Positions 33,264 through 58,536 of a stretch of 64,000 nt of DNA are shown here, one piece after another; the stretch's first letter is position 1, and every line of letters begins with the position of its first letter. The stretch comes from an uncultured virus (IMG/VR IMGVR_UViG_3300005965_000003). Taxonomy: Duplodnaviria > Heunggongvirae > Uroviricota > Caudoviricetes. The position numbers were made by a program, and so were the translations under genes. A model generated the notes under the pieces. The model was not told where the DNA came from. It saw only the letters and a program-made list of their open reading frames with translations, and ran no database searches. Where the stretch lies: IMG/VR virus record IMGVR_UViG_3300005965_000003; one strand, given 5' to 3'.

Positions 33264-33665
33264 CCATCCCGATAAGTATTACATCTCCATAATACCCCCC
33301 TTTAAGGGCTTAATACCTCCCCCCTTTTTTCACCATATCTCCGTATCTCTATATCTATTAAGATGTTAGGTTTGGGAAGGTCTGAGTAGGGTTTAGGTAC
33401 TTGCTGGTTACTTGCTGGGATGCCTGTAGGGTCGGTAAGGTAAGGTAGGGTTTAGGTAGGGTTGGGGGAGTTTAGGTAGCTGTCTGATCAGTTTCTTTCC
33501 CAAAGAACCTGGGCAGAAGGTGGGGGGGTGTTAGGTAGCTGCAGAAACATCGAATTTTACTGGGGCTTCGAAAATTGAAATCGCAAAATACCGAAAATTT
33601 GTGTGTACCTCAAGCGGGCCTGCGGGCCTCTGAGGCCTTTTTCCTATATTATAGTGTCTTTACAA

Positions 33666-33935
33666 ATTCCTGAAAAATGGAAAAAAAATTTCAGCTGAAA
33701 ATATTTGATTCTTGCCTATATGTATTAGTTAGGTGAGATAGATATTTCCACTATATTTTATTCCTGAAAAATGGAAAAAAAGATTTTAGTTGAAAATATC
33801 CGATTCTTGCCTATATGTATTAGTTAGGTGAGATAGATAGGTGAGATAGATATTTCCACTATATTTTATTCCTGAAAAATGGAAAAAAAGATTTTAGTTG
33901 AAAATATCCGATTCTTGCCTATATGTATTAGTTAG
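33666..33935 (+). repeat. three tandem AT-rich ~94-108-bp repeats, third partial
   Basis: Units start ATTCCTGAAAAATGGAAAA at 33666, 33760, 33868; share GATTCTTGCCTATATGTATTAGTTAG. Confidence 0.95.
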
Positions 33936-34055
33936 ATAGCAAAAGGCTCTGCGTGACCGGCAGAGCCTTTCTTAGTTGAGAGCAGCCGAGGGTGGCCGAA
34001 GGGATCGGCGGGCTGCCAGTAATGGAGACAACTTAACACAGAGAGGAGGCGCACC

Positions 34056-34331
34056 ATGAGCGCAACAAAAATTCTCCGAACAATCGCAGCCGACCCCCGC
34101 CACCTCACCCTCGATGATTTCGCGGGGTTTATCCCCGCAGATGCGGTCGTGTACAGCTTGCCTACGGGCAAGCTGTTTAAATGGGTCAGCCGGACAAAGT
34201 CCGGCTGGGGCTGGCTCCCACACGGGGAGCGGGCGGACTACGCCCGCGTATCCGTAGATGAGGAGGGGGTTGACCCCTCCTCAATCTGTTGCACCCGCGC
34301 AATGGGGCCATTGTCCCCATTGCGACGCTAA
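34056..34331 (+). CDS. hypothetical protein, first gene of the GC-rich array
   Basis: AGGAGG RBS. Confidence 0.7.
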   Translation: MSATKILRTIAADPRHLTLDDFAGFIPADAVVYSLPTGKLFKWVSRTKSGWGWLPHGERADYARVSVDEEGVDPSSICCTRAMGPLSPLRR

Positions 34332-34363
34332 GAGGGGACCCTCCGCCTAGGAGGGTCTCTCTT

Positions 34364-34478
34364 GACTCCGAACAGCACCGGAGTCTAAACATAGTGCTGG
34401 CAGCCATGCCCTAACGGGCATGACCGTCGCGGGCTGTACGATGCCCGCCATTGCCCCACGTACGGGGAAAAAAGATAA
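34364..34478 (+). ncRNA. structured element family 1 (H-type pseudoknot + hairpins); copies at 36178-36290 and, pseudoknot only, 38151-38184
   Basis: Compensatory changes between copies; conserved CTAAACATA linker. Confidence 0.7.
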
Positions 34479-34533
34479 TATCCAAAACCGCCCCCGCCTA
34501 AACGGGCGGGGGCAAAACAGAAAGGAGTATACC

Positions 34534-35433
34534 ATGCGTATACTCATCTCAAACAATGCCGACAACCTGACAGCCGCCCTCAGCGGCACAAACTCCGCCA
34601 CGGTCGAAGCCGAATACGGCGAGACCGTGGTGCAGGGGTCAATACTGACCCTTGCCCACCACGGGGACCGGGCGTCCCGCCCGTGCCCCTGTAGTCTGCC
34701 AAACATGGCAGACCTCGGGGTGGAGACCATTGGGGTGTCGCACTTCGATTTGGACACCCTTGGGGGTGTCATGGCAATTCTCGGGCGCAAGCCCGAGGTA
34801 GAGTATGACTGGTTGGGGGACTCATACCCCCACCAATATGACTCGTTTTGGGACACCGCCGCAGCGGTGGACCTCAATGGCGTCCATAAGCTCTCTGAGC
34901 TTATGGCGAATGGTTCCGACATGCTCGACATGTCCACGACCGAAGTTGTGGAAGCCCTCAACGCCTTCTGGGCATGGTCGGAGTCGAACCGACTGTTCCC
35001 CGAGAGGGACGGTTCCGTGACATCGGTCACGGAATTTTTCGAGACCGCCATGGAGGTGGTCGAAAAAATCCTGCAGGGGGACGAAACCCTCCTGCAGGCG
35101 GGGCGGGACTGGGCCACCGCCAAAGCCCAGCTCGACAAGGACAGCCTTGTCGAGAGCATGAACGGAGTCCAGCTTCGTTCTTCGGACAGCTTCGTGAACC
35201 ATCTCTATGGCACGGACACCCGTGCCATAGTCGGGTATTCCACGAAGTTTAAGAGCATCACGGTGTCCGTGCCGGATGCTATTGACGGGTTTTCCTGCGG
35301 GGAATTCCTGCAGGGTATCTTCGGCCCCGAGGCCGGAGGACACGCAGGGATCGGGGGATCCCCCCGGGGTATCGAGTATACGCTCGATGACGCCCGGGAA
35401 GTAGCGGTTAAGCTGGCGGAAACGCTGGCCTAA
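34534..35433 (+). CDS. DHH/MYG1-like phosphoesterase
   Basis: TLAHHG, SHFDLDTLGG, C-terminal AGGHAGIGGSPR; AAGGAG RBS. Confidence 0.6.
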   Translation: MRILISNNADNLTAALSGTNSATVEAEYGETVVQGSILTLAHHGDRASRPCPCSLPNMADLGVETIGVSHFDLDTLGGVMAILGRKPEVEYDWLGDSYPHQYDSFWDTAAAVDLNGVHKLSELMANGSDMLDMSTTEVVEALNAFWAWSESNRLFPERDGSVTSVTEFFETAMEVVEKILQGDETLLQAGRDWATAKAQLDKDSLVESMNGVQLRSSDSFVNHLYGTDTRAIVGYSTKFKSITVSVPDAIDGFSCGEFLQGIFGPEAGGHAGIGGSPRGIEYTLDDAREVAVKLAETLA

Positions 35434-35437
35434 TCTT

Positions 35438-35501
35438 TCCTGAGGGGCACCCGCCTAAACAGGCGGGTGTTAAAGGACAGACCTGGTCCCAAGTCCGGGT
35501 C
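35438..35501 (+). ncRNA. twister ribozyme, circularly permuted (P5-type)
   Basis: CCT-GAGGG-P1(GCACCCGCC/GGCGGGTGT)-TAA-AGG-AC-P4(GACCTGG-TCCCAAGT-CCGGGTC); both pseudoknots can form. Confidence 0.8.
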
Positions 35502-35507
35502 ACCTTT

Positions 35508-35572
35508 TGCTTGGCGGCTGACTACTGCCAGGCATTTTTTATAGATAGCCGGACTGGTCAACCGGCAATAAC
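35508..35572 (+). ncRNA. structured element family 2 (hairpin-T6-hairpin, complementary loops); copy at 35838-35903
   Basis: Covarying 10-bp stems; loop TGAC(T/C)A complementary to loop TGGTCA. Confidence 0.65.
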
Positions 35573-35586
35573 AGAAAAGGGGTTAT

Positions 35587-37151
35587 ATGTTGAGTAAATC
35601 TAATGCTCGCCGCCTGGCGGGCTCCCTGGGCGAGGATAAACTCGCCAACAACCCCGGGCATACCTGCACGGTGTGCGGGGTTGTTCTTTCCGAGGGTGAG
35701 GGAGTTGACTCCCTCACCCTCACGGGTGAGCCTCTGTGCGAGGCTCATCTCTGGGATGCAATTAATTAGCATCCTGCCGTCAGCCCATAACACGGGGGTA
35801 CGCCATCACCCCGGCAACAGAAGGCAATGTTTTCTACTGCCTGACGGCATGACCACCGTCAGGCATTTTTTATAGACTGTCGGCCTGGTCAACCGGCATT
35901 AACCCAATGGAATGGGGGTTATTATGAAAAAAGCCGCGACCGCCGCTGAACGGCGGTCAAAAAAGCGGGCCGCAGAAGCTCGCCGTAAAGCAATCTGGCG
36001 TGGGGTTTGCCTTACCCACAAGGCGGGCCGCGAGCTCGCCTTCTTCGGTATTATTACCGCTCTCGGGCTGAAGCTGCCCGAAATTGGTGCCAGCGCCTGG
36101 CACCACCTGACCGCCTTTGCGGTCAGCACTTGGATGCAGGTGCTGACCGTTTTTGGTCTCGCCTAAACGGCGGGACCGCCCCGAACGGTACCGGGGCCTA
36201 AACATAGTACCGGCAGTCATGGTTTATAGCCATGGCCGTCGCGGGCTGTACGATGCCCGTCTATGCCCCACGTACGGGGAAAACAGATAACACACTCTAA
36301 ACAGAGAGGACCACCCATGAACCAGCTAATTTTGGACGCCCTTAAACAATCACTCGCCCACAAAGAGGCGAATGACTGTGACTGTGAGAGTCTATACGGT
36401 GAGACCCAACTACAACTCCGAGAAGGGGTTGTTTATGCTGTTGTTAAGACGCACAGCATAAACCCGATGACTGACGAGCTCCCCGAGCCCGCCGAAGGTG
36501 TTAAGCGGTTCAGGGAGTACATTAACTCGGGCCACGCATTCTATTATGATTGCGTGCCACTCGCTTCATAAACCGGATGCCCATAACACGGGGGCATTAT
36601 AATACCGTGTCCACGAATAGGGACGAAACAAAACGGGTTCGTGCTGATGTGTCCCGCCCGATAGATAACATCCTAAACAGAGGAGCCTAAACATGGTTAC
36701 CAAAACACTTCCCGGTACCCTGGTTCTCAACATCCTTGAATCGGAATTCGTGGTCACGCACCACGACATCCCGCAGTTCGCGGGGGCCACTCACAACAAG
36801 TGCTTCGAGTGGCTCTTGAAGAATCAGTCGTGCTCGGTCAAAGAAGCGACCGAACATCAGGGATGGGCAATCAAGACCCGTGACGAGATCGTTGAGGATC
36901 CCGACCCCGAAACGATAGTCCGGATCGGGCGGTATGGGAAGTTCGGCTCCCGGAAAGCCATCCGGGAATTGTGTCGGGTTTCCGATACCATGCAGAAGCA
37001 GGAACGGGTGTCCGGCTTCATTGCCGGGCACAAGGTAGAGGGCTACTTCACACGGTCGGAAATTACCGACCTGTGCAAGCAGGATCCTCCCTACGAGCCT
37101 TCTCCTGAAGAGAAGGCTGCGTTCAAGGATTGGGTTGATAACCATTCATAA
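35587..37151 (+). other. four small hypothetical genes (35587, 35912, 36317, 36693), each separated by a structured spacer
   Basis: RBS-bearing + ORFs; CxxC/CxxH in 35587. Confidence 0.65.
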
Positions 37152-37231
37152 TGGTGCTGTGGATCCCCCTTCGGGGGGACCGGGGGCATGTCTAATCAAT
37201 AAGCACGGAAGGCCCCGAAAAAGATTAGACA
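37150..37231 (+). ncRNA. structured element family 3 (three interlaced helices); copies at 38964-39050 and 41520-41597
   Basis: GGT(G/A)CTGTGG start; all three pairings covary across copies. Confidence 0.7.
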
Positions 37232-37352
37232 CTACAGATGAAAGGACTGAACATGATTCAGGAAATAATCATTCTTGCTGTAACCTTCGGGCTCCCCTGC
37301 TGTGTGGGAGCTCTTTTGTTATGGCCCGAAGATAAACCTACAAAAGAAAGGG

Positions 37353-38126
37353 ATGGCCATGAGCCTACACATCGATAACCTGGTCCTTGAAGTGACCAGA
37401 AAATGCAACATGAAGTGCCAGCACTGCCTACGGGGCAGTGCTCAGCGGATGGATATGCCCAGGCACGTCATGTTCCGGACGCTCCGGGATGTGAGTTCTA
37501 TTCACTGCCTCACCCTCACGGGGGGTGAGCCGAGCATGGTCCCGGATGTGTTGGAAAATCTTCGTTCTGAACTCATCTGTAACCGCGTGGATATCAATTA
37601 CTTCTACGTGGTGACAAATGCCCACAGCACAAGGAACCGTAGCCGGTTCATTGAGTTCCTGGACTGGCTTAATGACTACACTGACGAACCAGAGATGAAT
37701 GCACTCGTCGTGTCTCAAGATCAGTTCCACAAAGCTGAACACGAGCCTAAGTGGAACGGTTTTGTGGACGAATGGGGTGAGCCTCTGCCCTACTTCCACC
37801 GGGAAGAGCGTCAACAGTACATCACATACGTCCTGAACGAAGGACGTGCTGTTGAACTGGGTACCGCAACCGCTGACCGCAAGGAACAGCGGGGGTGGGA
37901 ACTCACCCAGTGGGAGGAGTACGGCGAGATTCAGGTCATGGAGAATGAAGTATACGTTTCTGCCAATGGTAACGTCACAGGCTGTTGTGACATGGCTTTC
38001 AAGCGTATAGACGCTGAAGCCTATGGCAATGTTCTTCATGAAGATCTCGAAACCATTATCCTTCGGCACGGTGAGTGGTCGAAGGAATCAATACAGAACC
38101 AACAGACAGAGGAGGTCGCCGCTTAA
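37353..38126 (+). CDS. radical SAM protein with SPASM/twitch-like C-terminus
   Basis: EVTRKCNMKCQHC, LTGGEP, VVTN, YVSANGNVTGCC..YGNV. Confidence 0.9.
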   Translation: MAMSLHIDNLVLEVTRKCNMKCQHCLRGSAQRMDMPRHVMFRTLRDVSSIHCLTLTGGEPSMVPDVLENLRSELICNRVDINYFYVVTNAHSTRNRSRFIEFLDWLNDYTDEPEMNALVVSQDQFHKAEHEPKWNGFVDEWGEPLPYFHREERQQYITYVLNEGRAVELGTATADRKEQRGWELTQWEEYGEIQVMENEVYVSANGNVTGCCDMAFKRIDAEAYGNVLHEDLETIILRHGEWSKESIQNQQTEEVAA

Positions 38127-38228
38127 AGAAACAGAATGGGGTTTGGTTGTCGTCCTTCCCCGAGCGGACGCTAAACATATCGGGTGTACTCAACAACAAT
38201 CCCTTACTTATTCGAAAGGAGCCATACC

Positions 38229-38861
38229 GTGGCTAACACTATCGCTATTCAGACCAACGCCGACCGCCAGTCTAATATCCGGGAAATATTCAACGGGTTT
38301 CGCTTCAACAACGATGTGACCGAGCGGATTGAGCTGTTGAATGACCCTCGGTCCTTCTCTCTTCATGACCTGAATTTTTACCGGGGGCTGTACCAGCAGT
38401 TCAAGGAGAAGCCCAACAAGCGCTTCCCCAAGGGTGTCCTCGGTGAGATCGAGGAGCTCCAGGCCGAGCGCGACGATCTTAAGGAGCGGGGTCGGTCGAT
38501 GGACTACAAGAAAGTCCTGAGGCTGGAACAGCTCAAAGGTAACCTGCTCCGGCTCGAAAAGATGCTTACGGTGTTGGAGACCGCTATCGCTGAGCGTAAG
38601 CTCGCGATAACGGAAAAGAAGCTGGAGGAGGCTAAGGCTCAGAAGCCTGCGGCTCCCATCGGGAAGTGGGAGCGGGATGTGGTGATCAACAAGGCCGAAG
38701 CGGCCTCCCGCCTCGGGGGAGGGGACATCCTGAAGCGCAAGCTGAAGCACGCTAAGGACCACGGCAAGACCGTGATCCAGATGCTCAGCAATATCCAGCG
38801 CCTCTCCTTCGAGCCCTGCGGGGCAACCATCCGCTACATTCTTGAGAAGCGGGTGGGCTAA
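38229..38861 (+). CDS. coiled-coil hypothetical protein (GTG start)
   Basis: AAGGAG RBS; strong codon bias. Confidence 0.7.
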   Translation: MANTIAIQTNADRQSNIREIFNGFRFNNDVTERIELLNDPRSFSLHDLNFYRGLYQQFKEKPNKRFPKGVLGEIEELQAERDDLKERGRSMDYKKVLRLEQLKGNLLRLEKMLTVLETAIAERKLAITEKKLEEAKAQKPAAPIGKWERDVVINKAEAASRLGGGDILKRKLKHAKDHGKTVIQMLSNIQRLSFEPCGATIRYILEKRVG

Positions 38862-39663
38862 CCTTCACGGGGAGGTAAACCTTATGCCTCCGCTAAATTC
38901 CCCCCATCGCCGGGGACACCCTGAGGCATAGAAAGTGAGGTGTATCATGCGCTATCGTTAAACAATGGTACTGTGGGGGTCTGCTCATCGAGAGCGCCCT
39001 CGGGGACAGAGCCTGAGCATTAAGTACTGAAAGTCCCGAAAAAGCCAGGCATTACTAACCGAAAGGAGCCATACTATGGCACGCTCGAAGAAAGTTGACA
39101 GCATCACCCCGGCGTATTACCCTTGCGAGTCCTCTTGCGGACGGACTGCTCGTCCGCAAGAGGTCGATGACTACGAGAAATACGCCGAGCACTTTGAGGG
39201 TAACTACGGCGAAAAGATGAACATCACTTCTTTCCTCAAGGAGGTAATATGCTGAGAATCACCGGCGATATCAATGCAGTCCTGAACAAGGCCGTGGAGA
39301 CTAACAGTCTCCCGGCTCTTCAGGAGAAGGCAGTGACCCCGACACCAGCGAGCCTGGTGTTTGGTTTGACTGCTTCTATGAGGAGTAAGCATGAACCCTC
39401 GCCTGAAAAACGAGGCCCTCAGCATTGCTGGGGGCCTCTTCTCGAGGAGAGACCATAGTGTTAAGAAGAATTCGTAAGCTCCCTCCCCTCGCTGAGCATG
39501 ACGCCAGGCGTATCGCAAACGCCTGGTTTAAGTGGGGCGGTGACAAAGCGGAAAAGCTCTGGCAACAGCTCGTGACCAAACGAAAGATAAAGAAGTACGA
39601 AGCAATCATTTTTGCCGAGTACATCAGAGAGTTCTATGGAGACCTTCAACAAAAGGAGACAGC

Positions 39664-42600
39664 ATGAGCATAGTAACAGGTGTGATTCAGGCTAACAACG
39701 TCAGCTCTGAAGCCGTGATCAATGAGTTCATGAACAATGGAGTTGACCTCGGGTTTGAGGAGTACCTTGCCGAGAACGGTGAGGATGCTGCGGATGACTA
39801 CATGGACAACGGTGATAGCACCTACCTCTGCGGCTTCTACAAGAAAGAGGAAGGGCCGGATGCTGGTAAGTATGTCCCTGACCCTGACGCCCCATGCTCA
39901 GCCATCTTCAGCGCAGACCGGAACGTGATACAGGTTGTCCGCTCAAAATGGGTAGTCAGGGATGCACGATGGTGTTCCCCCTGCTATCCGGGACAGGCCG
40001 ATCTCGACTCTACTGACGGAGGCATCGAGGCATACACACTCCCCGAGGATTGGTTTGATATAGAGCATCCTCCGGTCAACCAGCCGGAATACATAGGATA
40101 AGTTGAATCTCTCGAATTCAGAAAGGACTAAACCATGTACAAAGAACTTGCATTCCCGAACGTGAAACGCTTGAGCGGGCTCTTTAGCTCGCTCAAGTAT
40201 TATGAGCCCGGCAAACGTGACCCTCACAGCCACAAGTACACCAAGATACACCCAACCGGACCAGAGATCTCGACCTTCTGTCAGATCACCGGGCCGGGTA
40301 TCGAAGGGTACCACACAGCCGACGCAGTCCCTAACAAGGTACTCGATAAGTACATCGCCAAGAACATGCTGGACATCGAAGGCGGTGTCTTCTTCGAGAT
40401 CGTTTGCCGTAAGGATGGTTCGGCTCTGGTGATCGTGAAGTACAATTCGATCATCGGAGATCGGTGGCTGGCAGAGATCCAGACCGATATGATTCCCGGT
40501 CTGGCTGAAGAAGAAGAAAAACACATAGCCGAGATGGCTGAACTAAAATCCTAAAGAAAGGTGGTCTCTCATGACTGACACACAGACACAGGTCAAGTCC
40601 AAAGTCGTCCTCTATAAAGGGGGCGGCTATGATGGGTGTATCTGGGAAGTGAACTGGTTTATGTTTGATGCCCAAGGCAACTGGCATAACTTGTACAGCT
40701 CAGGATACTCCGGCTTCAAGGATGACCAGGAGCACAAAGCCCGGGAGCTGTACAAGGAATGGGACACCGAAGTCCCCTCCGAAGAGTATGACTTCACGTA
40801 CGAAGGAGTCATGGAGGTGATAGATTTGGATAGAGATGAGTCCATCCTCTCGTTCTCGAAAGAGTACGAAACGGTGGTCACTCTGGCAGTCATCCGCACA
40901 GTCAACGACACCCTCGTTGAACAGGGTGAGAACGCCAAGATGTTCTTCAAATGTGACCATTGTGAGAAGCATATCTATCCCCTGTCCGAAGTCGAGGACG
41001 GGCATGTCGAGGGGCTCTCCGGGAACGGTGGGGTTGGATTCAGGGGTGACGAACTCTACTGTGATGAGTGTCACTTAAGTCTCTCCTGCGGGTACTGCGG
41101 GGAGTTTGACAGCGATACCCACAAGCAGGGCGGGTACTGCTCCTATCACTTTGAGACGGCTCTCAAGCGATGGCTGGAGAGCTTTGGGAGTGAGGGAATA
41201 CAGCACCTGTATGTCACAAACCTTAACGAGGTCGATATTGAGAACTATGTCGAGTGGGGTTTCTGCTTCGAGGACTGGATCAATACCGACCCTTCCGATG
41301 GTGAAGACATTCTCTGGATCATGAAGACAGACGAGCTGGATCGGTGGGGGATACATGAAGCTCGGTGGTACATCATCGAGGCTTCGTCAGAGAACCAAGC
41401 TCTCGACATCCTCACCGAGTGGACCGAGCGGAAACACTTTCAGATTGATATCTGGAAAGCTCGGGATTACATGGTGAAGAACATCGAAGAGCTGGAAAGG
41501 CATGTACACCATTAACCAAGGTGCTGTGGCTCCCTACGGGGAGCCGGGGTAGTATACAAACAGGATGAAAGCACTGAGACTACCCATTGAATCCTGTACT
41601 AACCACAACCAAAAGGAGGTTCTCATGAACCCGGATACCGAAACGACCGAACTGCTTTCGAAGGCTGACTATGAGAACGCTGTTCAGTCTCAGAATGCCT
41701 GCAACCTTTCAGGCGTTGTCTATTCACTGGCTTCCATCATGCCCAAGATCTGGAACGAAGCTCGGGCAAGAGAAAAGGGCACCAAGTGGGTCAACGAGCA
41801 CCCCATCTGTGCCTTGTTCGCTGAACAGATTTCCCACCTCTCGGGATGTGGGATAACGAACAACGATAGATACGGCACGCACATTAATTACTGTGAAGCG
41901 ATGGCTCAGGAGAACCGAGTCAAAGCTGCACAGTTTCTCCCGGAATACGCACCCCTTCAGAAGGAGGCTGGGATTCTGGCAGCACGGTAGTTCCCGTACG
42001 GCGATTGACTACCCTTTCGATCTGGTTAAGGAGGTTTGATATGATGACCAAGATGTTGTTCGCGCTGCACTTGATGGCAGCGAAGAGTGCTTTCTACACC
42101 AATCCCTATATGTACTGTGCCCCGGGAGGGGTCGACATCAACGAAGTCAACCGGGCAAAGAAAAAGAACCGCAGGAACAAGTCTCAGAAACGCAAAGCAA
42201 AAAGATAGGAGGGTTTAATGGTTGGTGATATCGTGATGACAGTCATACAGGGGCTTTATCCGGGTGGAATGTCCGCCTTCGAGGAAGAGGGCGGCTCTGT
42301 ATTCTACATCCCGGATGAAGAAATCCTGATCTATCACCCTTCCCTTGACCCCAAGGCAAAGGCGAAGATACTCAATTCCCTGAAGGGTCTGAACATAACC
42401 ATATCGTTTGTGTCCGCTGGAAACTTTGAGGACTTCCATATGGATCAGATCAAAGACTTCCAGGAGTATCTGATCATGAAGTTGATGGATCTGAAACTCA
42501 GTGCTGCAACGGTTCTGGTTTCCCGAGCCAGTATCTTCATCGGCATCCCGCACTACAAGAGTACTCAGATGGCTGTCAAACGTCTGAAGGATTTCCTCAC

Positions 42601-47144: not shown

Positions 47145-47665
47145 CCTGAAGGGGGTAACCAACCCCCCTCTACCTTGATACTCGCTAAATTCCCAATCAA
47201 TCTTCTCACTCAACAACAAAGGAGCCTATCATGGCTAAGAAAAAACTCAAGCTCAACTTTCGCACAATCGCTTTCCTCTCCGTCTCAACTCTCGGTGTCG
47301 TCGGCTGGTCCGGTCCTGACTATCAACCCCTTATCTCCGCCCGAGACTCGGGGTCACGAGTCATCACGCGAACGAAGGATAAGATCGAGGCTCTAAGGGA
47401 CTCAGCTTCCGAATGGGTAGAGGCTCTAAGGGGTCACGAGTCATCACGCCGATAGAGCCTCAGGCTCTAACACGAGTCATCACGTAGATCAGGGAGGCTC
47501 TAAGGAGTCTCCCCTTTTTATTCCAAGGCTCTACCACATATCAGGGAGGCTCTATGTGGAAACAGGCTCTAATGCAGGGATATAGTATAGCTCTTGGCTT
47601 AGCGGTACTTGCCCTGCTTGTTGACCAGGCTCTAAGAATTGTACATAAATCCGTAAAAAGGCTCT

Positions 47666-48256
47666 ATGAAAGAAACTCGAAAGGAGAACTACCCAATGAA
47701 TAACACGGTAAAAATTATCCTCACCCAAGACGGTCCCATGTCCTTGAGTGAAGATGCCCACGGATCTCTTCGCCCCGAAGTCCCCACCCGGCTTTCAGCC
47801 GAGGGGTGGGACGAACTGAATACGTTGCTTGAGAACTGTTCAGTGGAATCAGCCTGGCGCTCCGCAGATGGGTGGGAGCTTATGAGTAATCGAGGCTCTA
47901 CCATCAGTATCTATGACCTACTCAAGCCTCTGGAAGGCTCTAACGAGGATCTGGTCATGGCTTTGTGTGATGCCTTCGATACACACCTGAGTGAATACGG
48001 GTTCCAGGCTGTCGAAGCCGCCTACGATGCCAATGTCCTCTGCTGGAGAACTACCTCTCAGGTAAAACTTGAAGCACAAGTGCAGGAAATTGCGGTGAGC
48101 AAAGACTGCTACGGGTGCGGGGCTGAGCTTGAGGATTGGTATGATGTGAGTGAGGCTCTAACAGACCCTACAACGGGGTACGTAGTGCCTGAGGCTCTAT
48201 GCGAAGAATGTCTCAATACACAGGAGGAGAAAATAAGAAAGAGAACTGAAACCTAA
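47666..48256 (+). CDS. hypothetical protein with C-terminal CxxC pairs
   Basis: CYGC..CEEC. Confidence 0.65.
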   Translation: MKETRKENYPMNNTVKIILTQDGPMSLSEDAHGSLRPEVPTRLSAEGWDELNTLLENCSVESAWRSADGWELMSNRGSTISIYDLLKPLEGSNEDLVMALCDAFDTHLSEYGFQAVEAAYDANVLCWRTTSQVKLEAQVQEIAVSKDCYGCGAELEDWYDVSEALTDPTTGYVVPEALCEECLNTQEEKIRKRTET

Positions 48257-48281
48257 GGCTCTAAAACCCAGGTAAGCATCT

Positions 48282-48746
48282 ATGAGTCGCCGAAAACCCA
48301 AACGACAACCCAATATCCTTATATCCAACCCTCCGGTATCCTCTCAGGCAGCTTACCACCTTTTGGTGTGTAAGCTGGCCTCTGAGGCCGGTGAGAGACC
48401 ATTCCGCTGGTGGGAATGGGTGGCATTCAGAGCAAACTACCTAACAAATCTTGAGAGGCTCTACGGTATGCTGTGGTGTGAATACTGTGGAAAGCATCCT
48501 CTACAGATAAATGGTGAACTGTACTCTAACCAGTGTCTGGCGACGCTGGATCACATCCACGCTGTAGCACATGGAGGCTCTATCTATGATCCGAAAAATT
48601 TAGCGGTAGCCTGTCATGCCTGCAATCAAGAAAAGAATGATAGTAGGGGCTTTCACCCGAGGCTCTACCCCTACGAAAAAGAAACTATAGCATTACTCGA
48701 AAGGAGTATGTATGTCGAATCTGTCACCAAAGCTTACCCGAGGTAA
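48282..48746 (+). CDS. HNH endonuclease
   Basis: CEYCG..ATLDHIHAVAHGG..NLAVACHACNQEK. Confidence 0.9.
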   Translation: MSRRKPKRQPNILISNPPVSSQAAYHLLVCKLASEAGERPFRWWEWVAFRANYLTNLERLYGMLWCEYCGKHPLQINGELYSNQCLATLDHIHAVAHGGSIYDPKNLAVACHACNQEKNDSRGFHPRLYPYEKETIALLERSMYVESVTKAYPR

Positions 48747-49386
48747 CGAGAAGATCAAGGAGGCTCTTGTCTGGTCGATCCCCTCTGGTAAGACCTGCCC
48801 TGGAGCTACAAAGCTCTGTAGCGTGATCTGTTATGCCAGACAGTCGGAGATACAGTATCACAATGTTGTCCCACCGAGTCGCTGGCATAATCTGAGGCTC
48901 ACCAAACGGGCTGACTTTGCCGAGATCATGATCAAGGCTCTAAAGAGACGGCGCTACCGGGCGTTGCGGATACATGAGAGTGGTGACTTCTACTCTCAGG
49001 TGTACCTCAACAAGTGGGTAGGGATCATCAAGGCTCTACCGGAATGGATCTTTTGGGCTTACACGAAGTCTCACTCGCTGGACTTCTCCGAGGCTCTAAA
49101 GCTCCCCAACCTCAACCTGAGGTATTCGGTGGATGCCACCACAAAGAAGTATCCCAAACAGGATATGCCGCTGGCTCACCTGTCCATGCATCAGCCTGAC
49201 GGTGCCTTCGAGTGTCCCGGCACCGGAGCTGCTGGCGGGATCAAGTGTGCCAGAGATTGCAAGGTTTGTATGGAAACCTCTAAATCAATCTGGTTTCACC
49301 CCCATGGGACGCACCGAAAGAAGATTGAACGCTTCGAGAGTATCACTCCAGAGCACGAGTCATCACGTATTCTGGCTGGGGCTTAA
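48712..49386 (+). CDS. phage Gp88-like Fe-S/radical-SAM-related protein
   Basis: TCPGAT..C...CYA, RIHESGDFYS, WAYTKS, C-terminal Cys cluster and HG. Confidence 0.8.
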   Translation: MSNLSPKLTRGNEKIKEALVWSIPSGKTCPGATKLCSVICYARQSEIQYHNVVPPSRWHNLRLTKRADFAEIMIKALKRRRYRALRIHESGDFYSQVYLNKWVGIIKALPEWIFWAYTKSHSLDFSEALKLPNLNLRYSVDATTKKYPKQDMPLAHLSMHQPDGAFECPGTGAAGGIKCARDCKVCMETSKSIWFHPHGTHRKKIERFESITPEHESSRILAGA

Positions 49387-49411
49387 CGGCTCCAGCCTCT
49401 AAGGAGGCTCT

Positions 49412-52400
49412 ATGAATTACTGTCATGTCCCGGAGAACATCCGGGACATCATCAACAATTCTACTGAGGGCACACAGCAGGAATGCTATGATGCTATCGA
49501 GGAAGCAAAGGACTGGGAAGAAGCAAAGATGAATGTGAAAAATGCTCTCTACAATCTTGAGAGTGAATCTAAACGTATAAGGGAGGCTCTATCATGAGTG
49601 GATTTGTGAAGTATTCAAAGCCCATCGACTTTCAGACCATGAAGAAAGAAATGGAAGCCCGCCTCAAGGATTACCGGGAGAGTGTGAAATTCTTTCGGCT
49701 GGTTTATGGAATCCTCAAGGGATGGGAAGGAAAGCAGATCAGTAAGCGGATGACTACCTATGTCGATAAGCAGTTGCCCGAGAACACATGGTCGGCATTG
49801 GAGTTCAGTTTTTCCTCAATCTCAATGAGGTTCTACCGGAAGCAGACCGAACCCACATACAGAAACGAGCGGTTCATGACTCTTTCAATAGGGTCTGTGG
49901 ATAACAAGACATTCTCAATGGATGCCTTGAATATCGAGGTGGATTCTTACCAGTCACTTGAGGAGTCCGCCGACAAGCTGGAAGTGGGACTCAAGGCTCT
50001 ACCGCTCTTCGTGAAGGAATACAACGAGATTCTTTCCAGAGCACAGGCTTTGGTGGAAGAAGCGACTAAGGTCAAAATGGAGTATGACTTCGACATCATA
50101 ACGAGAGGGACAAATGAACCGGATTCAGCTCAAGACTCTAAGAGAACAGATTCAGGAAAATATCCGAAGAAGGAGAAGACATCGATGAATAACAAACAAC
50201 GACACGAAACCTTTGACGAGGCTCTAAAGATTCTTAAACAGGACTGGATGGATGCCCGACCGGGAAGCGCTCACAAGCAGAAGCTTTCCCATGTCTATGC
50301 AAGCCTCAAGAAGATTGCAGAGGAACGTACTCGGGTGGCTGTCTTCATGGACGGTGGACTGATCCAAGAAATATACTCCGACTCCCCGGTAGAGGTCATG
50401 AAGATCGACCTCGACGTCGAGGGGGCTGAAGAAGAAGAAGAGCTGACCACCTATCCCGACCGGGAAGGTGTGGCTAATAAAGCCTACATCTCGCTGGAAA
50501 AATCCGGGTACGGGGTGGATGTAGATGAAGAGTACATCGATACCCTGTGGAACAACCTCAACAAGGAGGACTGATGAGTAACCGAGCAATCCTGACAGCC
50601 ATGAAGTTCGAGGCTCTAAGCGGGGATGTGTCCTATGGATACACCCTGTCCGATGAGTATGCTCTGGACTACGATAACAATTCTGAAGCCATGATCGAAG
50701 ATGACCTCGACCTGCTCCGCTATGCCCTCAAGAACGCGGGCAACGGCGGGGATGAAATCCTTGGCAGTGTCAGGGATAACGAGAAAGGTATACAGATCAA
50801 TGACCAGTGGTATGACTGGGAAGAAATCGAATCCATTATGGAAGGAGATGAACAATGAATAACGAAGCCGCTGTGATCATCGTCATGGATAATGACAACC
50901 TCATGGATACCATCCTCGTGCCCAATGGGCATGAGGATGATCGGGCGGAGAAGGTCTTCGCCAAAACCTGCCAGCTCCACCTCCATGCTACCGCTAAATT
51001 CCCCCGAAGATGCAAACTTTGATGGGGGCTACATGAAGAAGGGGAATATGTATGTCATGCTCACATGGCCCCGACTGCCTGAGTATGAGTATGAGAATCG
51101 GTGTCGGGTCTGTGCCCATGATGTGAGGTTCTGGTACAAGGGTGAAGAACCAATCACCGATGAGATCAAAGAGATCATGAATGAGGAAGCAGAGAGCCGG
51201 GCAAAAGATATGATCATTGAGGACTATACCTCCGGTGAACTCAATCTGGAAAATGATGAATACTCTTTCCGAGGATGGTGGGAAATTGAAAAACAGTAAC
51301 CTGGCTTTCGAGATAACCGTGGAGGACGTGATAAACGTCCTCCGCAAAGAGAACAGAATCGCTCAACTCAGTAGAGTGGAAGAACTCTATAACGAGCTGG
51401 ACTTTGGAGCCATTGAGAAAGAGGCTCTATACGGAGATGACATCGATGAACAGACAGAGTATGCGTATGATGCCATTTGGGAACAAATCAAAGGGAGGCT
51501 CTAATGAATCCGAATGCTTGTGAAGAGTCGATCAAGGCTCTAAGCGATCTGCTCCATCAGTATCACGCACAGGAAAAGTGTGGTATGCAGTCCGTACTGC
51601 GGGATGTGTTGACAGACCTGCGCCATGCAGCCCATGAAAGGCATCTGGACATCGATAAGGCAATCGAAGGCTCCCGGATGGTATGGGAATCAGAAATGGG
51701 ACGATGGTTCGTGCCCGGCATGGAAGTCATGGTGGACTCCCCCCCGAATGAAAAAGCCTGCTGGAACAATGAGTTCCGGGGGACCATCGTTAAGGTCAGC
51801 CAGGAAAGAAAGATGTATGATGCAGGCAGGAATGAATATTCCTGCTACTGCACCGTCAAAGATCAGGAAGACAACCACTACGATATCGATTACAAGTATG
51901 TTCATCCTATGGAAAAGGAGGACTGAATGGGAGACTCTAAGATGTCTTTTGAAGAAATGGAACAGAAGTATGTCCTAAACAATGGGCTGACCTGCCTCAA
52001 CCCTGAGTGTGACGGCACAGACTTCGAGGGAGGCTCTATCAAAATCGATGGACCCATCGCTGTACAATCCATTACCTGCAACAAATGTGGATCTTCATGG
52101 AGCGACATCTACAAGTTGCAAGGTGTAGATGACGTGGAGCTGGAAAATGAATGAGATAAAACGTATGGATCTCATGAGATTCAGAGTGCTCTACATCCCT
52201 GTGGGTGTAGAGCATCCCCACTTTCCGGCAGTCAAACACGAGAAGCCTATTGTAGAGTTCTATGATATGCTTTACCAGCATACACCCGATGGGCAGTTCA
52301 CGGGGGGACGCTACTATATAGAGACTCTACTGGAAGACTCCGAGCGTCTAAGAGTAACAGGACTTTCCCTCGAAGGATCAATTCCTTCATGGGTAATCTT

Positions 52401-54641
52401 TCCTACAGAAATGAACAATACCTTGAACTGGATTGAAGCATTGCAAAAGGAATCCGAATGATCAATAACCGCAAGAAGCTGGAGAACTACCGCAAGCTAC
52501 TCCAAGAAAGATATGAGGCTCTAACAAAAGAACTCATGGGTCGAGAAGCCGATTATGAGAAATTCGAAGACCGACACCACGGAACAGGACGGGGAACATA
52601 CACAAAAGAATATGTGGATGCGTCCAATATCTCAGACTCCCTCAAGGTACGTATGGCTGTCGATGACTTCCAGACTATCCTCAAAGAAATCAAGAAACTC
52701 GCTGCCAAATAAGGAGGCTCTATGAGCAAGTACATCTGCGGAATGTGTGGTGGTACCGAAGCCGATTTATTTAGGAGGCTCTAAAATGATTGAATCCACA
52801 ATCGAATACAAGATCCCCTTCAAGGATGGTATAGAGGGTATAGAGTACGTGGAAGATTGAGTATGCACAAATCCAACATTGCCAAAGTGAAATGTATGGA
52901 ATGCAATGAGTTCTTTCCCCCCGAGGATTTCGAGGGGGAAGACCTCACTAAGCAGGCCATTCATAAGAAATGTGGACGACTGACTGTCTGTCCAATCTTC
53001 ATTATACATCCCATAAATGAAAGGATAATATGAACACCAAGATCGCCTACATGTATCGTGACGGTGACAACTACAAACAATACGAGGAAGTCGTCATCCC
53101 CGGAGAGATCACCGACGAAGACAAGGCTCTAATCCTCAGCAAGCGGGATGAGGGTCAATACTTCATCCCCTCTCAGGTAGGACTCAATGACTTGCAGGAA
53201 AGAATGTGCTCACCCATCGGGGACTCAGACCATGTGTGGCATGAGCTGGAAGAAGAAGATATCTCCCACACCCATGATGACCCCACCCCTAACCACGGCT
53301 TTGATAATATCTCGGAGCTGGTGGAAAGGTTCAAGGCTCTAAAAGAGTGGGATATCATGGGCGCTACCAAAGATCACAATTTTAATCCCGAACAGTAATA
53401 TTCTTTCACAATCAAACAAATGGAGGACAATATGTCCCGTACGGTAGAAATCTATCTGTCTGACCTCACCGAAGAGAAACAGCAGGAAGTCCTTGAGGCT
53501 TCCGGACTCTCATCCGCCGACAACTGGGATGTATCACCTCTGGCTATCCTCGAATACGAGGACGAACCCTATGAAGAATAAACGCTTCACCATCCCCCGG
53601 TCCTCTAAATATGCCCGACACCTTTGGGGTCGGGCAGGGACCCTCCTTAAAGAAACACCCACACAGGTATACGATTATGCAAATAATCGTATAAAAGACT
53701 CTAAAGAATACTGGCTCAAGTTTGATGAGCCTGTACCAGCCAAGGATGAGTTCGGGCATGACTCCCCTCTGGCTGGTTGGGAAGGCATATGGATATCCAA
53801 GGAACTCATAACCGAAGCGGAGGACAACTGATATGAATAAGAATTGTAACGACTGCGGGGTATTGCTCCCCACCGATGCCAAAGGATCACTGTGCGTCTA
53901 TTGTGAGAAATCAAAAGAACGCAGAGAAGAACACAGAGCCTCTTGGATCTCCTACAATGAACCCGAGGCTATGAAAGAACTCAAGCCCGGTATGTATCTC
54001 GGTCTGTACCATGGATTCAAGAACGAGCAAGAACGACAAGAGACAGAGGATTGGGGAGCCAATGGCCCCTGTATAGGTCCCCTCGTCTTTGCCCATACCA
54101 CCTATGCGGCTCACATCAAACTGCGCTTCAAGGATGATGAGACGGCTCAGAGATTCGGCTTTAATGAAGCCGATGACTTTAATGAGATAAAGATTAAAGG
54201 AGATGTCGTAGAATACGATGGTATGGAATACGGAGACTGGACCTGCTTCACCCACCCCACCCCGGAGATGAAATGACTAAACGTAAGTACGGGTATATCA
54301 TTACCCAAAAAGGTGCCCCCCAACTCACAAAGAATATCGGTGACTCCTATACTTTTCTGGTGCCGGTAAGCATTCAAACAGATAACAATAAACAAAGAGA
54401 AACTCTTGAGGAAGTCACTCACATTTTCTATAACTCAGATAAAGGATGGGTACCGTACCTGAGTACATGCGAAAGTGACTACAGTACCCTGCTCTTTGAT
54501 TCCGATGAAGATGCCGAACTGCTCTCCGAAATGGCTCAAGCCCTCGGGGACAAAGCCATCAGCCAGATGTTCTATACGGCTGAATGCATCTGGAAAGCAG
54601 CACCCCAGGAGTTCTCTATCACAGATGAAGATATCCTCTAA
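49412..54641 (+). other. array of small acidic hypothetical genes (49412, 49594, 50574, 51504, 51927, 52458, 53030, 53833, 54273 and others)
   Basis: Co-oriented overlapping ORFs; several starts use GGAGGCTCTATG. Confidence 0.65.
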
Positions 54642-54921
54642 GACACAAGTCATCACGTATTATCAAGGCTCTAACACAAACAAGGAGACTCTATGAACAA
54701 GGCTCTAACCTATAAGACTGAAGACTTCCGAGTCATCACCGATACAGACATGACCCACTGCCGCTCCACCCGCTGAGGAAGTGATCCAATTGATCATCAC
54801 CAAACTCAAACGTGGAGAGTATCAGTAAGTATACGAGGCTCTATCCTTAGAGCCTCTATCCCTCCTCCCACCACCACGGGGAGGGTCTAACCAAGGATCT
54901 AACACCCAACAAGGAGGCTCT

Positions 54922-55719
54922 ATGAGCACCCGTGGTAATGTCACTATCAAAACAAAACATGGGACTTTCATGTATGAAATCCCCTCCTCAGCAGATGAGA
55001 TGGACAACATTAAGCTGCTTGAGAACTGGTCTGGAGATATGCCCGAACTCCAGGAACTCCATATGAATCCCGGTCACGTAGGAAATCCCTCCATCTTCCT
55101 CGATGTCGATGCCATCAAAGGTACCCTGACCATCAGGAAAGCTCAATCCTTTTGGGTCAATGCCCCTGAGGATTGGAGAGAACGTGGGTATATCTGCTAC
55201 CAGAGCGATAAAGACTATAAGCAGTGGGGATACCACTCATGGAGAAGAGGTAATGTAATCATGAGACATACCTATCCCGAGGCTCTAACAACTCCCGGAG
55301 CCGCCCCCGACTGGCTCTATACCAAAGAGGACATGAAGGAACTGGCAAGTATCTTCCAAGGCTCTAACGGGTACAGCCAAGCCGCCTACCTCATGAAGAA
55401 AGTCTCAGCCGTAAAAGAACTGGTACCGGTCTTGTTTGGACCCTATACCAAAGAGGAAATGAAGGAACTGGCAAGTATCTCCCAAGGCTATAACGGGTAC
55501 AGCCAAGGCTCTAACGGGTACAGCCAAGCCGCCTACCTCATGAAGAAAGAATACAAGTACGACCCTCAGAAGATTTATCTGTGGCTCTCAGCCGTAAAAG
55601 AACTGGTACCGGTCTTGTTTGGACCCTATGAAGAACTCCCTACCATGCTCAACTCATGGGAACCTATCAAATCAATCGCCATCTGGCGGATGAAAATGAA
55701 TGAAAGGAAAGCAGTATAA
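54922..55719 (+). CDS. hypothetical protein with recent internal duplication
   Basis: MKELASI.QG.NGYSQ and SAVKELVPVLFGPY each occur twice; tail EELPTML..AIWRMK. Confidence 0.75.
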   Translation: MSTRGNVTIKTKHGTFMYEIPSSADEMDNIKLLENWSGDMPELQELHMNPGHVGNPSIFLDVDAIKGTLTIRKAQSFWVNAPEDWRERGYICYQSDKDYKQWGYHSWRRGNVIMRHTYPEALTTPGAAPDWLYTKEDMKELASIFQGSNGYSQAAYLMKKVSAVKELVPVLFGPYTKEEMKELASISQGYNGYSQGSNGYSQAAYLMKKEYKYDPQKIYLWLSAVKELVPVLFGPYEELPTMLNSWEPIKSIAIWRMKMNERKAV

Positions 55720-56180
55720 ATGCTGCACAAAAACTACTACGGCATTTTCGGCCTTGCACCAGTAAAATTCGGCGCAAGGCTCTCTAAACCGATCCTAAAC
55801 CAGTCCTAAACGGAGGTACACGAATGAAAAACGTCCAAATCCCGATGCAGTTTGATGAAGAGGCTCTAAAAAACCTCAGAGAGCAGAAAAATGAGCTGAT
55901 TAGGGCAAGAAATAATGATGCTCTCTCAGAAAATGTAGAGGGTATCATACACATGATCGACCACATCCAGGATTATTTGGCGGACAACAAGATATTTCCT
56001 GAAAATGTGGTATTCGACAAGGGATTGCGAAGACTGGCAGTATGAAGTAGCAAACAATGATACCCGCCTCGGGTATCATGAGTGGGTCGAAAAGAAAAAA
56101 GAAGAAGATTCGTAATCAAATAAGTATATTGTTATTGGTTGTTCCCTTTTACCTCCATTTAAGGTGCAACCGACTCCGAC

Positions 56181-56218
56181 GGCCCCAAGGAGCCACCACC
56201 TCCGAGGGGCCTTTTTTT
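56181..56218 (+). terminator. intrinsic terminator
   Basis: GGCCCC..GGAG/CTCC..GGGGCC followed by T7. Confidence 0.7.
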
Positions 56219-56261
56219 ATGTCTGAGGAATCGGACCCAATCAACAAAGGAGCAAGTAATC

Positions 56262-56705: not shown

Positions 56706-56713
56706 CACCCCCA

Positions 56714-56739
56714 AAATTCTTCCACAGGTGGAAGAATTT
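56714..56739. promoter_or_regulatory. 26-bp palindromic site AAATTCTTCCAC-NN-GTGGAAGAATTT; also 56798, 57035, partial 57303, 59108, 59222
   Basis: Perfect 12-bp arms in three copies. Confidence 0.85.
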
Positions 56740-57883: not shown

Positions 57884-58014
57884 TTGACTGCCTCTGTCTC
57901 TTTTATTCACTTTTCCCAAAGGTACCCTATCCCTATTTAATTGAATGCTCTTAAATAATACCCGTATACCGATGGGGTACCACCCAAAACCAAACCAATC
58001 ATGGAGGTAAAACC

Positions 58015-58287: not shown

Positions 58288-58536
58288 CCCAACTAGGGTA
58301 CCCCCCTCCAAAATGTCTCTGTGGGCTTTTAAAAAGCTCTCAGGGGCAAGGGGTACCCCCTACCTTCTCCAAGGGTTTATATCTATGATGTACGTCCTCA
58401 CAGTCCTTCTCATCATCATTATCGTGATGATGTTAGGTATGTGGCAAGGATTAGTCACAATGAATACCAACATGGTAAAATGTCTCAGGGCTATACAGAT
58501 AGAAATAAAGGCTCTAAAAACCAATAAGGAGGATCT

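Follow-up and report, generated by a model that had tools for sequence, protein, structure and literature searches.

Structured RNA modules, among them a twister ribozyme and a hammerhead-like element, between the small genes of an uncultured tailed phage

We examined 64,000 nucleotides of DNA from an uncultured tailed virus (IMG/VR record IMGVR_UViG_3300005965_000003; hereafter the window), in which the spacers of an array of small + strand genes at 34332-41624 hold recurrent RNA elements, among them a twister ribozyme. Comparative analysis of these spacers identifies two RNA families, family A and what we call the S5-type element, that are conserved by pairing in unrelated phages and occur there in the same order. 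New, on the same evidence, are these two families, a third (family C) in which all long-range helices cross, and a hammerhead-like core, within the S5-type element, in a strand order not found in the literature searched. We give roughly even odds (about 0.5) to the reading that the gene boundaries of this array are reusable cis-acting modules of the sense RNA that would cut or terminate transcripts and then protect the RNA ends so formed.

Nine spacers of 101-214 nt were delimited between + strand genes with Shine-Dalgarno sites:

Spacer S1: 34332-34533, + strand
Spacer S2: 35434-35586, + strand
Spacer S3: 35770-35924, + strand
Spacer S4: 36167-36316, + strand
Spacer S5: 36572-36692, + strand
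Spacer S6: 37152-37252, + strand
Spacer S7: 38127-38228, + strand
Spacer S8: 38862-39075, + strand
Spacer S9: 41516-41624, + strand

A sequence-only reading of this DNA had placed a knot or kissing loop in nearly every spacer, had recognised three knotted families with compensatory differences between copies, and had named one element a twister ribozyme. Eight of the nine spacers do carry a pseudoknot-type element on the mRNA-sense strand, but kissing loops found no support, and S3 is the exception, being made of hairpins and a terminator with alternative pairing, without a supported knot. Repeat analysis and reading of the sequence delimited five recurrent modules, namely families A, B and C, the S5-type element and GC-rich hairpins with CUAAAC in the loop; A, C and the S5-type element are the three knotted families. 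When we scanned for H-type pseudoknots (both stems of at least 5 bp, loop 1 of 1-4 nt, loop 3 of 6-11 nt), the + strand gave 14 matches in 64 kb, seven of them within the ~1.3 kb of spacers, and the - strand gave 15, none in the nine spacers. In these pseudoknots loop 1, of 2-3 nt, would span the deep groove and loop 3, of 8-9 nt, the shallow one, lengths that work on the + strand alone.

Scanning the whole window against Rfam 15 returned a single gathering-level match, the Twister-P5 listed below, and at E<=10 over 33-45 kb there were 12 matches, the 11 besides the twister lying far under the cut-offs. Families A and C and the S5-type element match no Rfam 15 covariance model, RAGATH motifs, riboswitches and exonuclease-resistant RNAs (xrRNAs) included, so the array is not simply a collection of known families. 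Guanidine-II, preQ1 and other small pseudoknot riboswitches, pistol, hatchet, hepatitis delta virus (HDV)-like ribozymes and xrRNAs were rejected for want of an Rfam match; the helix orders of pistol, hatchet and HDV-like ribozymes also differ from those of the window elements. The elements on which the argument turns are the following:

Twister-P5 self-cleaving ribozyme: 35439-35498, + strand; Rfam RF02684, 52.1 bits (gathering threshold 37.6), E 6e-8
Family A copy 1: 34362-34472, + strand; upstream of gene 34534-35433, which the twister follows
Family A copy 2: 36175-36284, + strand; upstream of gene 36317-36571, which the S5-type element follows
Pseudoknot-only third copy with the loop CUAAACAUA: 38151-38184, + strand; helix sequences wholly unrelated to those of copies 1 and 2
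S5-type element: 36575-36662, + strand; a 5' H-type pseudoknot, then a near-complete hammerhead-like core

By its Rfam match, which spans model positions 1-58 of 58, the sequence at 35439-35498 is a twister ribozyme. In the Rfam alignment the T1 partners are GGG at 35444-46 and CCC at 35488-90, and T2 joins AC at 35477-78 to GU at 35493-94 where the consensus joins GC to GC, a compensated double change. Cleavage is predicted within the UAA at 35471-73, between U35471 and A35472.

Family A consists of an H-type pseudoknot with the loop CUAAACAUA, followed by hairpins Ha, Hb and Hc; in copy 1 the pseudoknot occupies 34364-34399 and its loop 3 reads (C)UAAACAUA. The window has five TAAACATA sites, three of which lie within the pseudoknot, and shuffles matched the helices of the three CUAAACAUA pseudoknots in 1/3000, 4/3000 and 13/3000 cases. 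Between the two full window copies, 6 of 35 pairs are changed on both sides, as against 0-1 in slid controls, with 2 wobble changes and 1 terminal pair lost, which bears out the compensatory differences claimed earlier. A covariance model built from these two copies only (R1) detected one full-length homologue, at 11664-11774 of locus L114 (37.3 bits, E 2e-6 for 157 kb on both strands); it lies in a second phage (G001), one gene upstream of that phage's own S5-type element. Across the three-row alignment, 97.1% of the cells of the 35 pairs are paired and 19 pairs are changed on both sides, a count that 0/500 shuffles reach and that compares with 2-5 in slid controls. The pseudoknot helix is 100% paired, with five of its six pairs changed on both sides, and, because it is absent from R1, it cannot have been fitted by the model; support extends to helices S1, Ha and Hb, with the reservation that the alignment is biased in their favour. 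Between the two phages, most unpaired positions of family A differ. In the G001 copy CUAAAC is absent, loop 3 is AUACAAGUG, and the element abuts the ribosome-binding site, leaving no room for a promoter.

A kissing-loop helix proposed for family A is not supported: the two window copies show no variation in it, and in the outside homologue its central pairing is disrupted (over three rows, 3 pairs invariant, 1 wobble change and 1 broken). MAFFT put the helices out of register both for the three pseudoknot copies and for the S5-type element against its G001 homologue, and model-based alignments and scripts were therefore used instead. Pattern scans of IMG/VR added no further family A: the 3' domain gave 3 chance matches in coding DNA, and CUAAACAUAGU...GGCAG gave 22 matches, most of them in one protein-coding family and none (0/22) with the pseudoknot, R1 returning only E 0.05 and 0.77 on the 13 of these loci to which it was applied. 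One spacer in an unrelated IMG/VR phage (L051, 330-420, minus strand) has CUAAACAUAGUC directly before a start codon and, upstream, a potential pairing partner for it, GGGUUUAGG, as well as a CCCCAUAACAGGG hairpin that resembles the 5' motif of S3 and S5; it scores 15.8 bits with R1 (E 0.05) and has no match to R2, the S5-type model described below.

The S5-type element opens with a pseudoknot (S1 36577-82/36592-97, S2 36586-91/36605-10) and continues into a core with a GUC ending at 36611, stem I (36612-18/36637-43), stem II (36620-24/36651-55), GAAA at 36625-28 (in GAAAC) and CUGAUGU at 36644-50. Stem II is closed by the usual G10.1-C11.1 pair, and the A15.1-U16.1 pair is accompanied by two further pairs. 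The hammerhead core positions C3 U4 G5 A6 N7 G8, G12 A13 A14, A15.1-U16.1 and H17 are present in both S5-type copies, and the cut, if the element cleaves, is predicted after C36611. The strands run 16.x-C17-1.x, then 11.x-GAAA-15.x, then 2.x-core-10.x, with stems I and II crossing; this order fits none of hammerhead types I-III and cannot be derived from them by circular permutation. It would be a fourth topology, in which 1-2 nt link the substrate strand, at the end of stem I, to the distal end of stem II, and ~7 nt link the stem III strand to the distal end of stem I. A literature search, which was not exhaustive, found no hammerhead with this strand order. A scan with the re-wired pattern, which was defined after the site had been seen, found one site in the window; in composition-preserving shuffles any match occurred in 2/300 and one as strong in 0/300.

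Searching IMG/VR for GACGAAAC and CUGAUGNGUC separated by 8-20 nt yielded 48 loci, two of which (L067 and L101, the same phage, 99.99% identical over 30.6 kb) are true homologues of the whole S5-type element, located between two small genes, in a spacer; the strict scan excluded all the other 46, of which one (L061) passed the relaxed scan, weakly. Beyond what the search pattern demanded, the homologue has the 5' pseudoknot domain, whose unpaired letters are almost the same in both copies, as well as the GUC triplet, a U at core position 9 and a stem I of unrelated sequence. A covariance model built from the window copy alone (R2) likewise found one full-length homologue, at L114 11966-12049 (36.6 bits, E 5e-7). 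In the S5-type alignment 94.4% of 27 pairs are paired and 7 are changed on both sides (three in stem I, two in stem II and one in each pseudoknot helix), compared with 0-2 in slid controls. The six bases before the predicted cut can form either 6 bp with the pseudoknot loop or 3 bp (6 with a bulge) with the strand after GAAA, and both alternative partners change along with them in the second phage. The G-rich segment beside stem I can also pair with the tail after stem II, with no covariation. R2 had no match in five large IMG/VR records (0/5, which shows little) or at 9 further loci.

The two phages that share these elements are otherwise unrelated: blastn found two chance-level matches of 29-38 bases (E 0.63), and none of the 456 window open reading frames (ORFs) matched the second phage in tblastn. 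In all three cases the order is nonetheless family A, a small gene and a ribozyme slot, namely copy 1, gene 34534-35433 and the twister; copy 2, gene 36317-36571 and the S5-type element; and, in G001, family A, a gene for 59 amino acids and an S5-type element. Judged from the translations, the 59-aa gene is not similar to the corresponding gene of the window. The S5-type element therefore occupies the slot that, in a paralogous cassette, holds a proven ribozyme class, which is the best contextual argument for cleavage, and we consider that it is probably a ribozyme cutting after C36611. Two further spacers of G001 (L114 11114-11245 and 12400-12530) are rich in hairpins and pseudoknots and match none of the window families.

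Family C is represented three times in the window:

Family C copy 1: 37154-37230, + strand, in spacer S6
Family C copy 2: 38967-39050, + strand, in spacer S8
Family C copy 3: 41520-41596, + strand, in spacer S9

In copy 1 the helices are P1 (37154-58/37202-06), the P2 hairpin (37161-81), P3 (37183-87/37212-16) and P4 (37190-97/37223-30). All three copies have a P1 of 5-6 bp, the P2 hairpin, a P3 of 5-7 bp and a P4 of 5-8 bp in the strand order P1a, P2, P3a, P4a, P1b, P3b, P4b, which makes P1, P3 and P4 mutually crossing. The P3 and P4 sequences are unrelated between copies and the pairing is kept in 3/3. The anchor pattern of the family has 3 matches in the window against 0.03 expected, and shuffling both regions reproduced P3 and P4 together in 0/2000, 30/2000 and 5/2000 cases for the three copies. 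Three crossing 5-bp helices of a generic kind occur about 4 times per kb on either strand, so topology alone is no evidence and only the conserved register of the family counts; on that register, family C is a third RNA family with a rare, all-crossing topology. It begins within a few bases of a stop codon, and few of its unpaired nucleotides are conserved. Just before copy 2, spacer S8 contains a four-codon mini-ORF with a good ribosome-binding site (38947-38961, + strand), which may be the remnant of a deleted gene; related strains carry small deletions around it.

The array also contains terminator-like hairpins, alternative pairings and hairpins that display the motif CUAAAC:

Family B copy 1: 35508-35572, + strand; a 10-bp hairpin and U6 (35508-35540), then a conserved 5-bp hairpin with the loop ACUGGUCAA
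Family B copy 2: 35838-35903, + strand; a terminator-like 10-bp hairpin and U6 (35838-35871), then the conserved hairpin
Terminator-like 14-bp hairpin and U5: 36119-36155, + strand; inside the last codons of gene 35924-36166
S3 domain: 35775-35849, + strand; a 9-bp long-range stem (35775-83/35841-49) in the minimum-energy fold
GC-rich 9-bp hairpin with CUAAAC in its loop: 34488-34515, + strand; 19 nt before start codon 34534, and a repeat (D11) shared with the twister P1 hairpin
GC-rich hairpin with CUAAAC in its loop: 36155-36177, + strand; the stop codon of gene 35924-36166 lies in the loop

The S3 long-range stem, whose upstream strand begins 6 nt after the stop codon, competes with the 5' arm of the next terminator, and in S2 the terminator arm GCUUGG has an alternative partner in the twister loop, CCAAGU; termination in S2 and S3 may be conditional. 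The 5' part of the S3 domain has the motif CCCAUAACACGGGGG in common with S5, the first 15 nt of the S5-type element recurring there, and gives a weak partial R2 match (E 0.96). Termination at 36119-36155 would yield a message without a stop codon. An IMG/VR pattern scan for family B had no matches.

CUAAAC occurs nine times on the + strand and not once on the - strand of 34.0-39.2 kb, and wherever it falls inside a predicted element it is unpaired in the proposed folds (three times in pseudoknot loop 3, and in the apical loops of three GC-rich hairpins). As a guess from these positions, it may be a lineage-specific single-stranded site for a trans-acting factor. The complement of the motif, GTTTAGGTA, occurs three times on the + strand at 33391-33478, within a G-rich and C-poor stretch that shortly precedes the array, follows a + strand gene and is itself followed by a terminator-like hairpin at 33624-33638; these copies could pair with the CUAAAC loops of the array (34385-40133). 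CUAAAC also stands three times in tandem at 55784-55811, before a gene start.

Taken together, these observations suggest a scheme that is plausible in outline, in which each boundary of a hyperplastic array of small, early-type genes would be drawn from a small set of reusable RNA modules. At some boundaries the nascent RNA would be cut (in the twister at 35471/35472, in the S5-type element after C36611), and others would be made by termination, at family B. Once cut by the twister, the upstream mRNA would end in the P1 hairpin and bear a 2',3'-cyclic phosphate; cleavage of the S5-type element would allow the last six bases of the 5' product to refold into the upstream pseudoknot, and its 3' product, carrying a 5'-OH, would have its first bases in stem I. 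Lying 10-60 nt before the next ribosome-binding site, families A and C would serve as the structured 5' end of the next message. Structured ends bearing a 2',3'-cyclic phosphate or a 5'-OH would slow the end-dependent RNases of the host, and the result would be a stable mRNA of its own for each gene cassette. The sequence-only reading had imagined the cutting and protecting of one polycistronic early transcript: the predicted cuts would put new ends into stable structure, but the terminator-like hairpins make a single transcript doubtful.

Several observations weigh against this scheme. The terminators inside the array render one long obligatory polycistronic RNA unlikely and could alone define the mRNA ends, and protection from exonucleases is purely something that we infer. 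No RNA run containing the region was found, and hence no transcript, cut or RNA end was seen. Each family rests on 2-4 sequences from two phages, and family C is known from this phage alone, copies outside the window not having been found: a scan of IMG/VR gave 6 chance matches, a strict pattern in GTDB genomes gave 17 matches, none with the P2 hairpin, and a generic P1 search of the other retrieved sequences gave no copy. Nested minimum-energy folds, which cannot include knots, have strong z-scores for S1 (-6.6) and S2 (-4.5) and z-scores near zero for S5 (0.0), S7 (+1.0) and S8 (-0.5). In the S5-type element, core position 9 is U rather than A in both copies, the canonical stem III has only 2-3 bp and competes with a 6-bp pseudoknot helix for the same strand, and the strand order is not known from any active hammerhead. 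No Rfam hammerhead model matched at E<=10 (33-45 kb) or at E<=1 (L067/L101), and since the IMG/VR scan demanded GACGAAAC and CUGAUGNGUC, the conservation of those core letters is ascertainment rather than evidence.

A more specific proposition goes further than the scheme, and we would not bet on it: the S5-type element would be an active ribozyme with a hammerhead active site in a fourth, pseudoknotted topology, its 5' pseudoknot gating the reaction and recapturing the cut 3' end, and families A and C would be further new classes of functional RNA (ribozymes or exonuclease blocks) that travel between unrelated phages in a gene-cassette system. The earlier suggestion that some of the elements are new ribozyme classes has gained ground for the S5-type element, with its hammerhead-like core in the slot equivalent to that of the twister, but not for families A and C.

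Two alternatives were weighed against the cut-and-protect scheme. The knots could be binding sites for a trans-acting factor or ligand, whether as antitermination RNAs of the put or boxB kind, as translational operators or as riboswitch-like elements, and not devices for cutting and protecting. The strand bias of CUAAAC (9 versus 0) and its unpaired placement in the proposed folds speak for such a factor, as do the terminators within the array, the alternative partners of the S3 terminator 5' arm and of the S2 arm, and the S5 strand with its two co-varying partners; nevertheless, CUAAAC is missing from the G001 copy of family A, no Rfam riboswitch or antiterminator model matches, and no candidate RNA-binding protein was identified, 20 of the 21 array proteins being without a Pfam family; we consider this explanation unlikely. 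Somewhat harder to sustain is the view that the spacers are regulatory cassettes like the PeSL cassettes of T4-type phages, each gene having a terminator, a promoter and a leader that serve above all as homologous patches for shuffling, with the knots as decoration. The U6 terminator-like hairpins of S2 and S3 and the one at the end of gene 35924-36166 would fit, as would a -35/-10-like pair, TTGCCC-17-GATAAT (9/12), inside family A copy 1 and the plain repeated terminator cassettes between small genes of a distant phage. So would the mosaic structure of related-strain contigs (80-99% identity), whose joints lie at or near repeated elements, PeSL cassettes being, in excerpts of PMC2839356 and PMC4122927, mediators of such shuffling: one joint, 34478 to 36292, links family A copy 1 with copy 2; a second leads from 35906 back to 35579, both points lying close behind a family B copy; and at 37153, immediately ahead of family C copy 1, there are loose ends whose upstream gene is a different one. 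However, a sigma-70-like promoter scan (the promoter type of the host may differ) found 13 sites against 10.7 +/- 3.9 in shuffles, with none on the + strand in family B; family A of G001 leaves no promoter room; a genuine ribozyme lies inside the array; and between unrelated phages it is the helices and not the sequence that are conserved, which recombination patches would not need. The elements nonetheless appear, from the strain comparison, to be module boundaries as well, as PeSL cassettes are.

That families A and C are themselves self-cleaving strikes us as improbable. Both fold into compact knots, family A is linked to a ribozyme slot in 3/3 cases, and family C starts next to stop codons; the logic of association with known ribozymes is, moreover, what reportedly led to pistol, hatchet and twister-sister. 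Set against this are the scarcity of conserved unpaired nucleotides in C, the turnover of unpaired letters in A between the phages, and the lack of likeness of either to any Rfam ribozyme model. Least credible, and by a wide measure, is the alternative raised by the sequence-only reading that the structures form in single-stranded DNA, during genome entry or replication or as hairpin promoters. Watson-Crick helices can form in either nucleic acid, and the window does encode a 2066-aa protein without an assigned function, but the loop lengths fit only the + (mRNA) strand, and G-U pairs in several helices (for example stem I of S5 and P1 in two copies of family C) would turn into A-C mismatches on the opposite strand. 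The enzyme twister is itself made of RNA, the elements are placed, in both phages, after a stop codon and ahead of the next ribosome-binding site, and both phages look like ordinary double-stranded DNA tailed phages.

The window looks, from its gene content and distribution, like part of a large tailed phage of hypersaline lakes with a bacterial-type host. Metagenome runs from hypersaline lakes and microbial mats hold contigs with DNA near-identical to the window. A haloarchaeal host was rejected, the protein relatives found being all from bacterial phages; a polynucleotide kinase (PNK) of the window shares 37-40% identity with the PNKs of Streptomyces phages and of an uncultured huge phage, and a further protein has relatives among Mycobacterium phage proteins. 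Neither the window itself nor its lineage was found in phage records, IMG/VR or JGI by DNA and protein searches: when 34.0-42.0 kb was compared with 50,697 phage records, neither megablast nor blastn gave a match; the 299-aa protein of gene 34534-35433 has one 36% relative in IMG/VR (L001), with different spacer elements that have no Rfam match; the radical-SAM protein has 7 distant loci in JGI metagenomes, none with these RNAs, and none in IMG/VR; and a 314-aa protein has no relative in IMG/VR or phage records. In L001 a GGCCUCC...CUGG element is repeated twice between small genes (6814-6950), and in a distant phage (L013) a plain terminator cassette is repeated three times between small genes (270-330, 580-640 and 1190-1250).

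The array starts at a very sharp step in GC content, from 0.36 to 0.59 at ~34.0 kb (33970-34000), and is the most GC-rich part of a window whose GC ranges from 0.30 to 0.59; the step lies inside DNA that is continuous in the related-strain contigs. Directly to its left, repeat analysis identified the following feature:

Three tandem AT-rich repeats of ~100 bp (family D1): 33631-33935, no strand assigned

We presume that these repeats are the promoter region for the array; the sigma-70-like sites found in them are on the minus strand. To the right of the step follow the small + strand genes with strong Shine-Dalgarno sites, which we call 'early' by inference from their layout. The only Pfam family among the 21 array proteins is that of a radical-SAM/SPASM protein (37359-38126). 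The 299-aa protein has a C-terminal GGHAGIGG reminiscent of DHH-family phosphoesterases, with no Pfam or PDB match, and the 80-aa protein of gene 35924-36166, which has an arginine-rich N-terminus (AAERRSKKRAAEARRKAIW) and then a hydrophobic half, could be an RNA-binding peptide or merely a membrane protein.

Elsewhere, the window codes for two PNKs and an RNA ligase (2.9-7.9 kb), for HNH endonucleases and, on the minus strand, for ORFs of 2066 and 920 aa; no tRNA genes were found in the 64 kb. At 2928-7899, two polynucleotide kinase/phosphatase genes flank the RNA ligase gene, which has an HNH insertion. Such enzymes heal and seal 2',3'-cyclic phosphate and 5'-OH ends of the kind that self-cleaving ribozymes make, and a link between them and the RNA array is speculation on our part. 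All copies of the 8-mer AGGCTCTA, 50 on the + strand and two on the - strand, fall within 12 kb (47388-59143; ~0.2 copies expected), nine of them in 47388-47667. The motif occurs in coding and non-coding DNA without a wider consensus, often as GGAGGCTCTAT(C)ATG at gene starts; it may act as a polar signal in the DNA, as a phage promoter, or as a site for nicking or for an RNase.

For the question of what use phages make of the ribozymes that are common between their genes, and of the structured RNAs around them, this locus offers a compact and testable system: a twister and a hammerhead-like element stand in equivalent slots of paralogous cassettes, each with the same knotted RNA upstream, and two of the modules are kept by structure in a phage with no shared genes. 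If the S5-type element cleaves, the hammerhead fold would tolerate a non-planar re-wiring of its three-way junction, ribozyme searches would have to reach beyond covariance models of known types, and a natural design with tethered stems I and II would be at hand. Should families A and C prove to block exonucleases or to recruit a factor, phages of bacteria would have their own counterparts of viral RNA-protecting knots, and these modules would be useful parts for stabilising synthetic mRNAs.

Among known systems, the rightward early transcript of T7, made from tandem promoters, is split between genes by RNase III, and 3' hairpins stabilise the pieces. The logic of cutting and protecting is the same, but in T7 a host enzyme cuts simple hairpins, whereas here the RNA is predicted to cut itself and knots would be the protectors. 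RAGATH motifs, reportedly described as structured RNAs beside twister and hammerhead ribozymes by Weinberg et al. in 2015, resemble the present elements in being structured and near a twister or hammerhead among small phage-type genes; families A, C and S5-type, in contrast, match no RAGATH family in Rfam, the comparison being limited to the motifs held there. The window twister has P1, P2, P4, T1, the U-A step and the T2 pseudoknot of Twister-P5 (RF02684), and it differs in its T2, which is A-U/C-G where G-C/C-G is conserved, in the CUAAAC of its P1 loop, and in the terminator-like hairpin 10 nt downstream. T2 is, in an excerpt of PMC5408937, the most critical tertiary contact of twister, with cleavage at a U-A step.

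The PeSL cassettes, described in the same excerpts of PMC2839356 and PMC4122927 as composite promoter/terminator motifs that mediate gene shuffling, are like the present elements in being short and repeated, in lying between non-essential small genes of a hyperplastic region, in having stem-loop terminators (present here by sequence), and in marking places where gene content shifts between relatives. They differ, as described there, in that a PeSL is a sigma-70 promoter with a simple stem-loop, whereas here there are a ribozyme and pseudoknots, with pairing and not sequence conserved, and no + strand promoter was detected in family B. Compared with hammerheads, the S5-type element lacks loops I, II and III, runs in the order substrate, GAAA, CUGAUGA strand, and has U at position 9 and a stem III of 2-3 bp for whose strand a 5' pseudoknot competes. 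It has in common with them CUGAUG, GAAA, the A15.1-U16.1 pair and a GUC triplet at the expected cleavage site, together with a stem I of 5-7 bp and a stem II of 5 bp that show covariation. Weak stems III are common among hammerheads according to an excerpt of PMC3088659, in which most type II hammerheads have a pseudoknot between loop I and the 3' tail, which the possible pairing of the G-rich segment with the tail in the S5-type element resembles. The same source describes hammerheads of salterns and haloviruses whose cores carry changes without precedent and which lie in an early region, 13 nt ahead of a start codon, and the S5-type element, like the variant of haloviruses HF1 and HF2, stands in a phage spacer just upstream of a gene. 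Prophage genes flanked by multiple hammerheads are also reported there, for which a role in processing long phage transcripts has been proposed.

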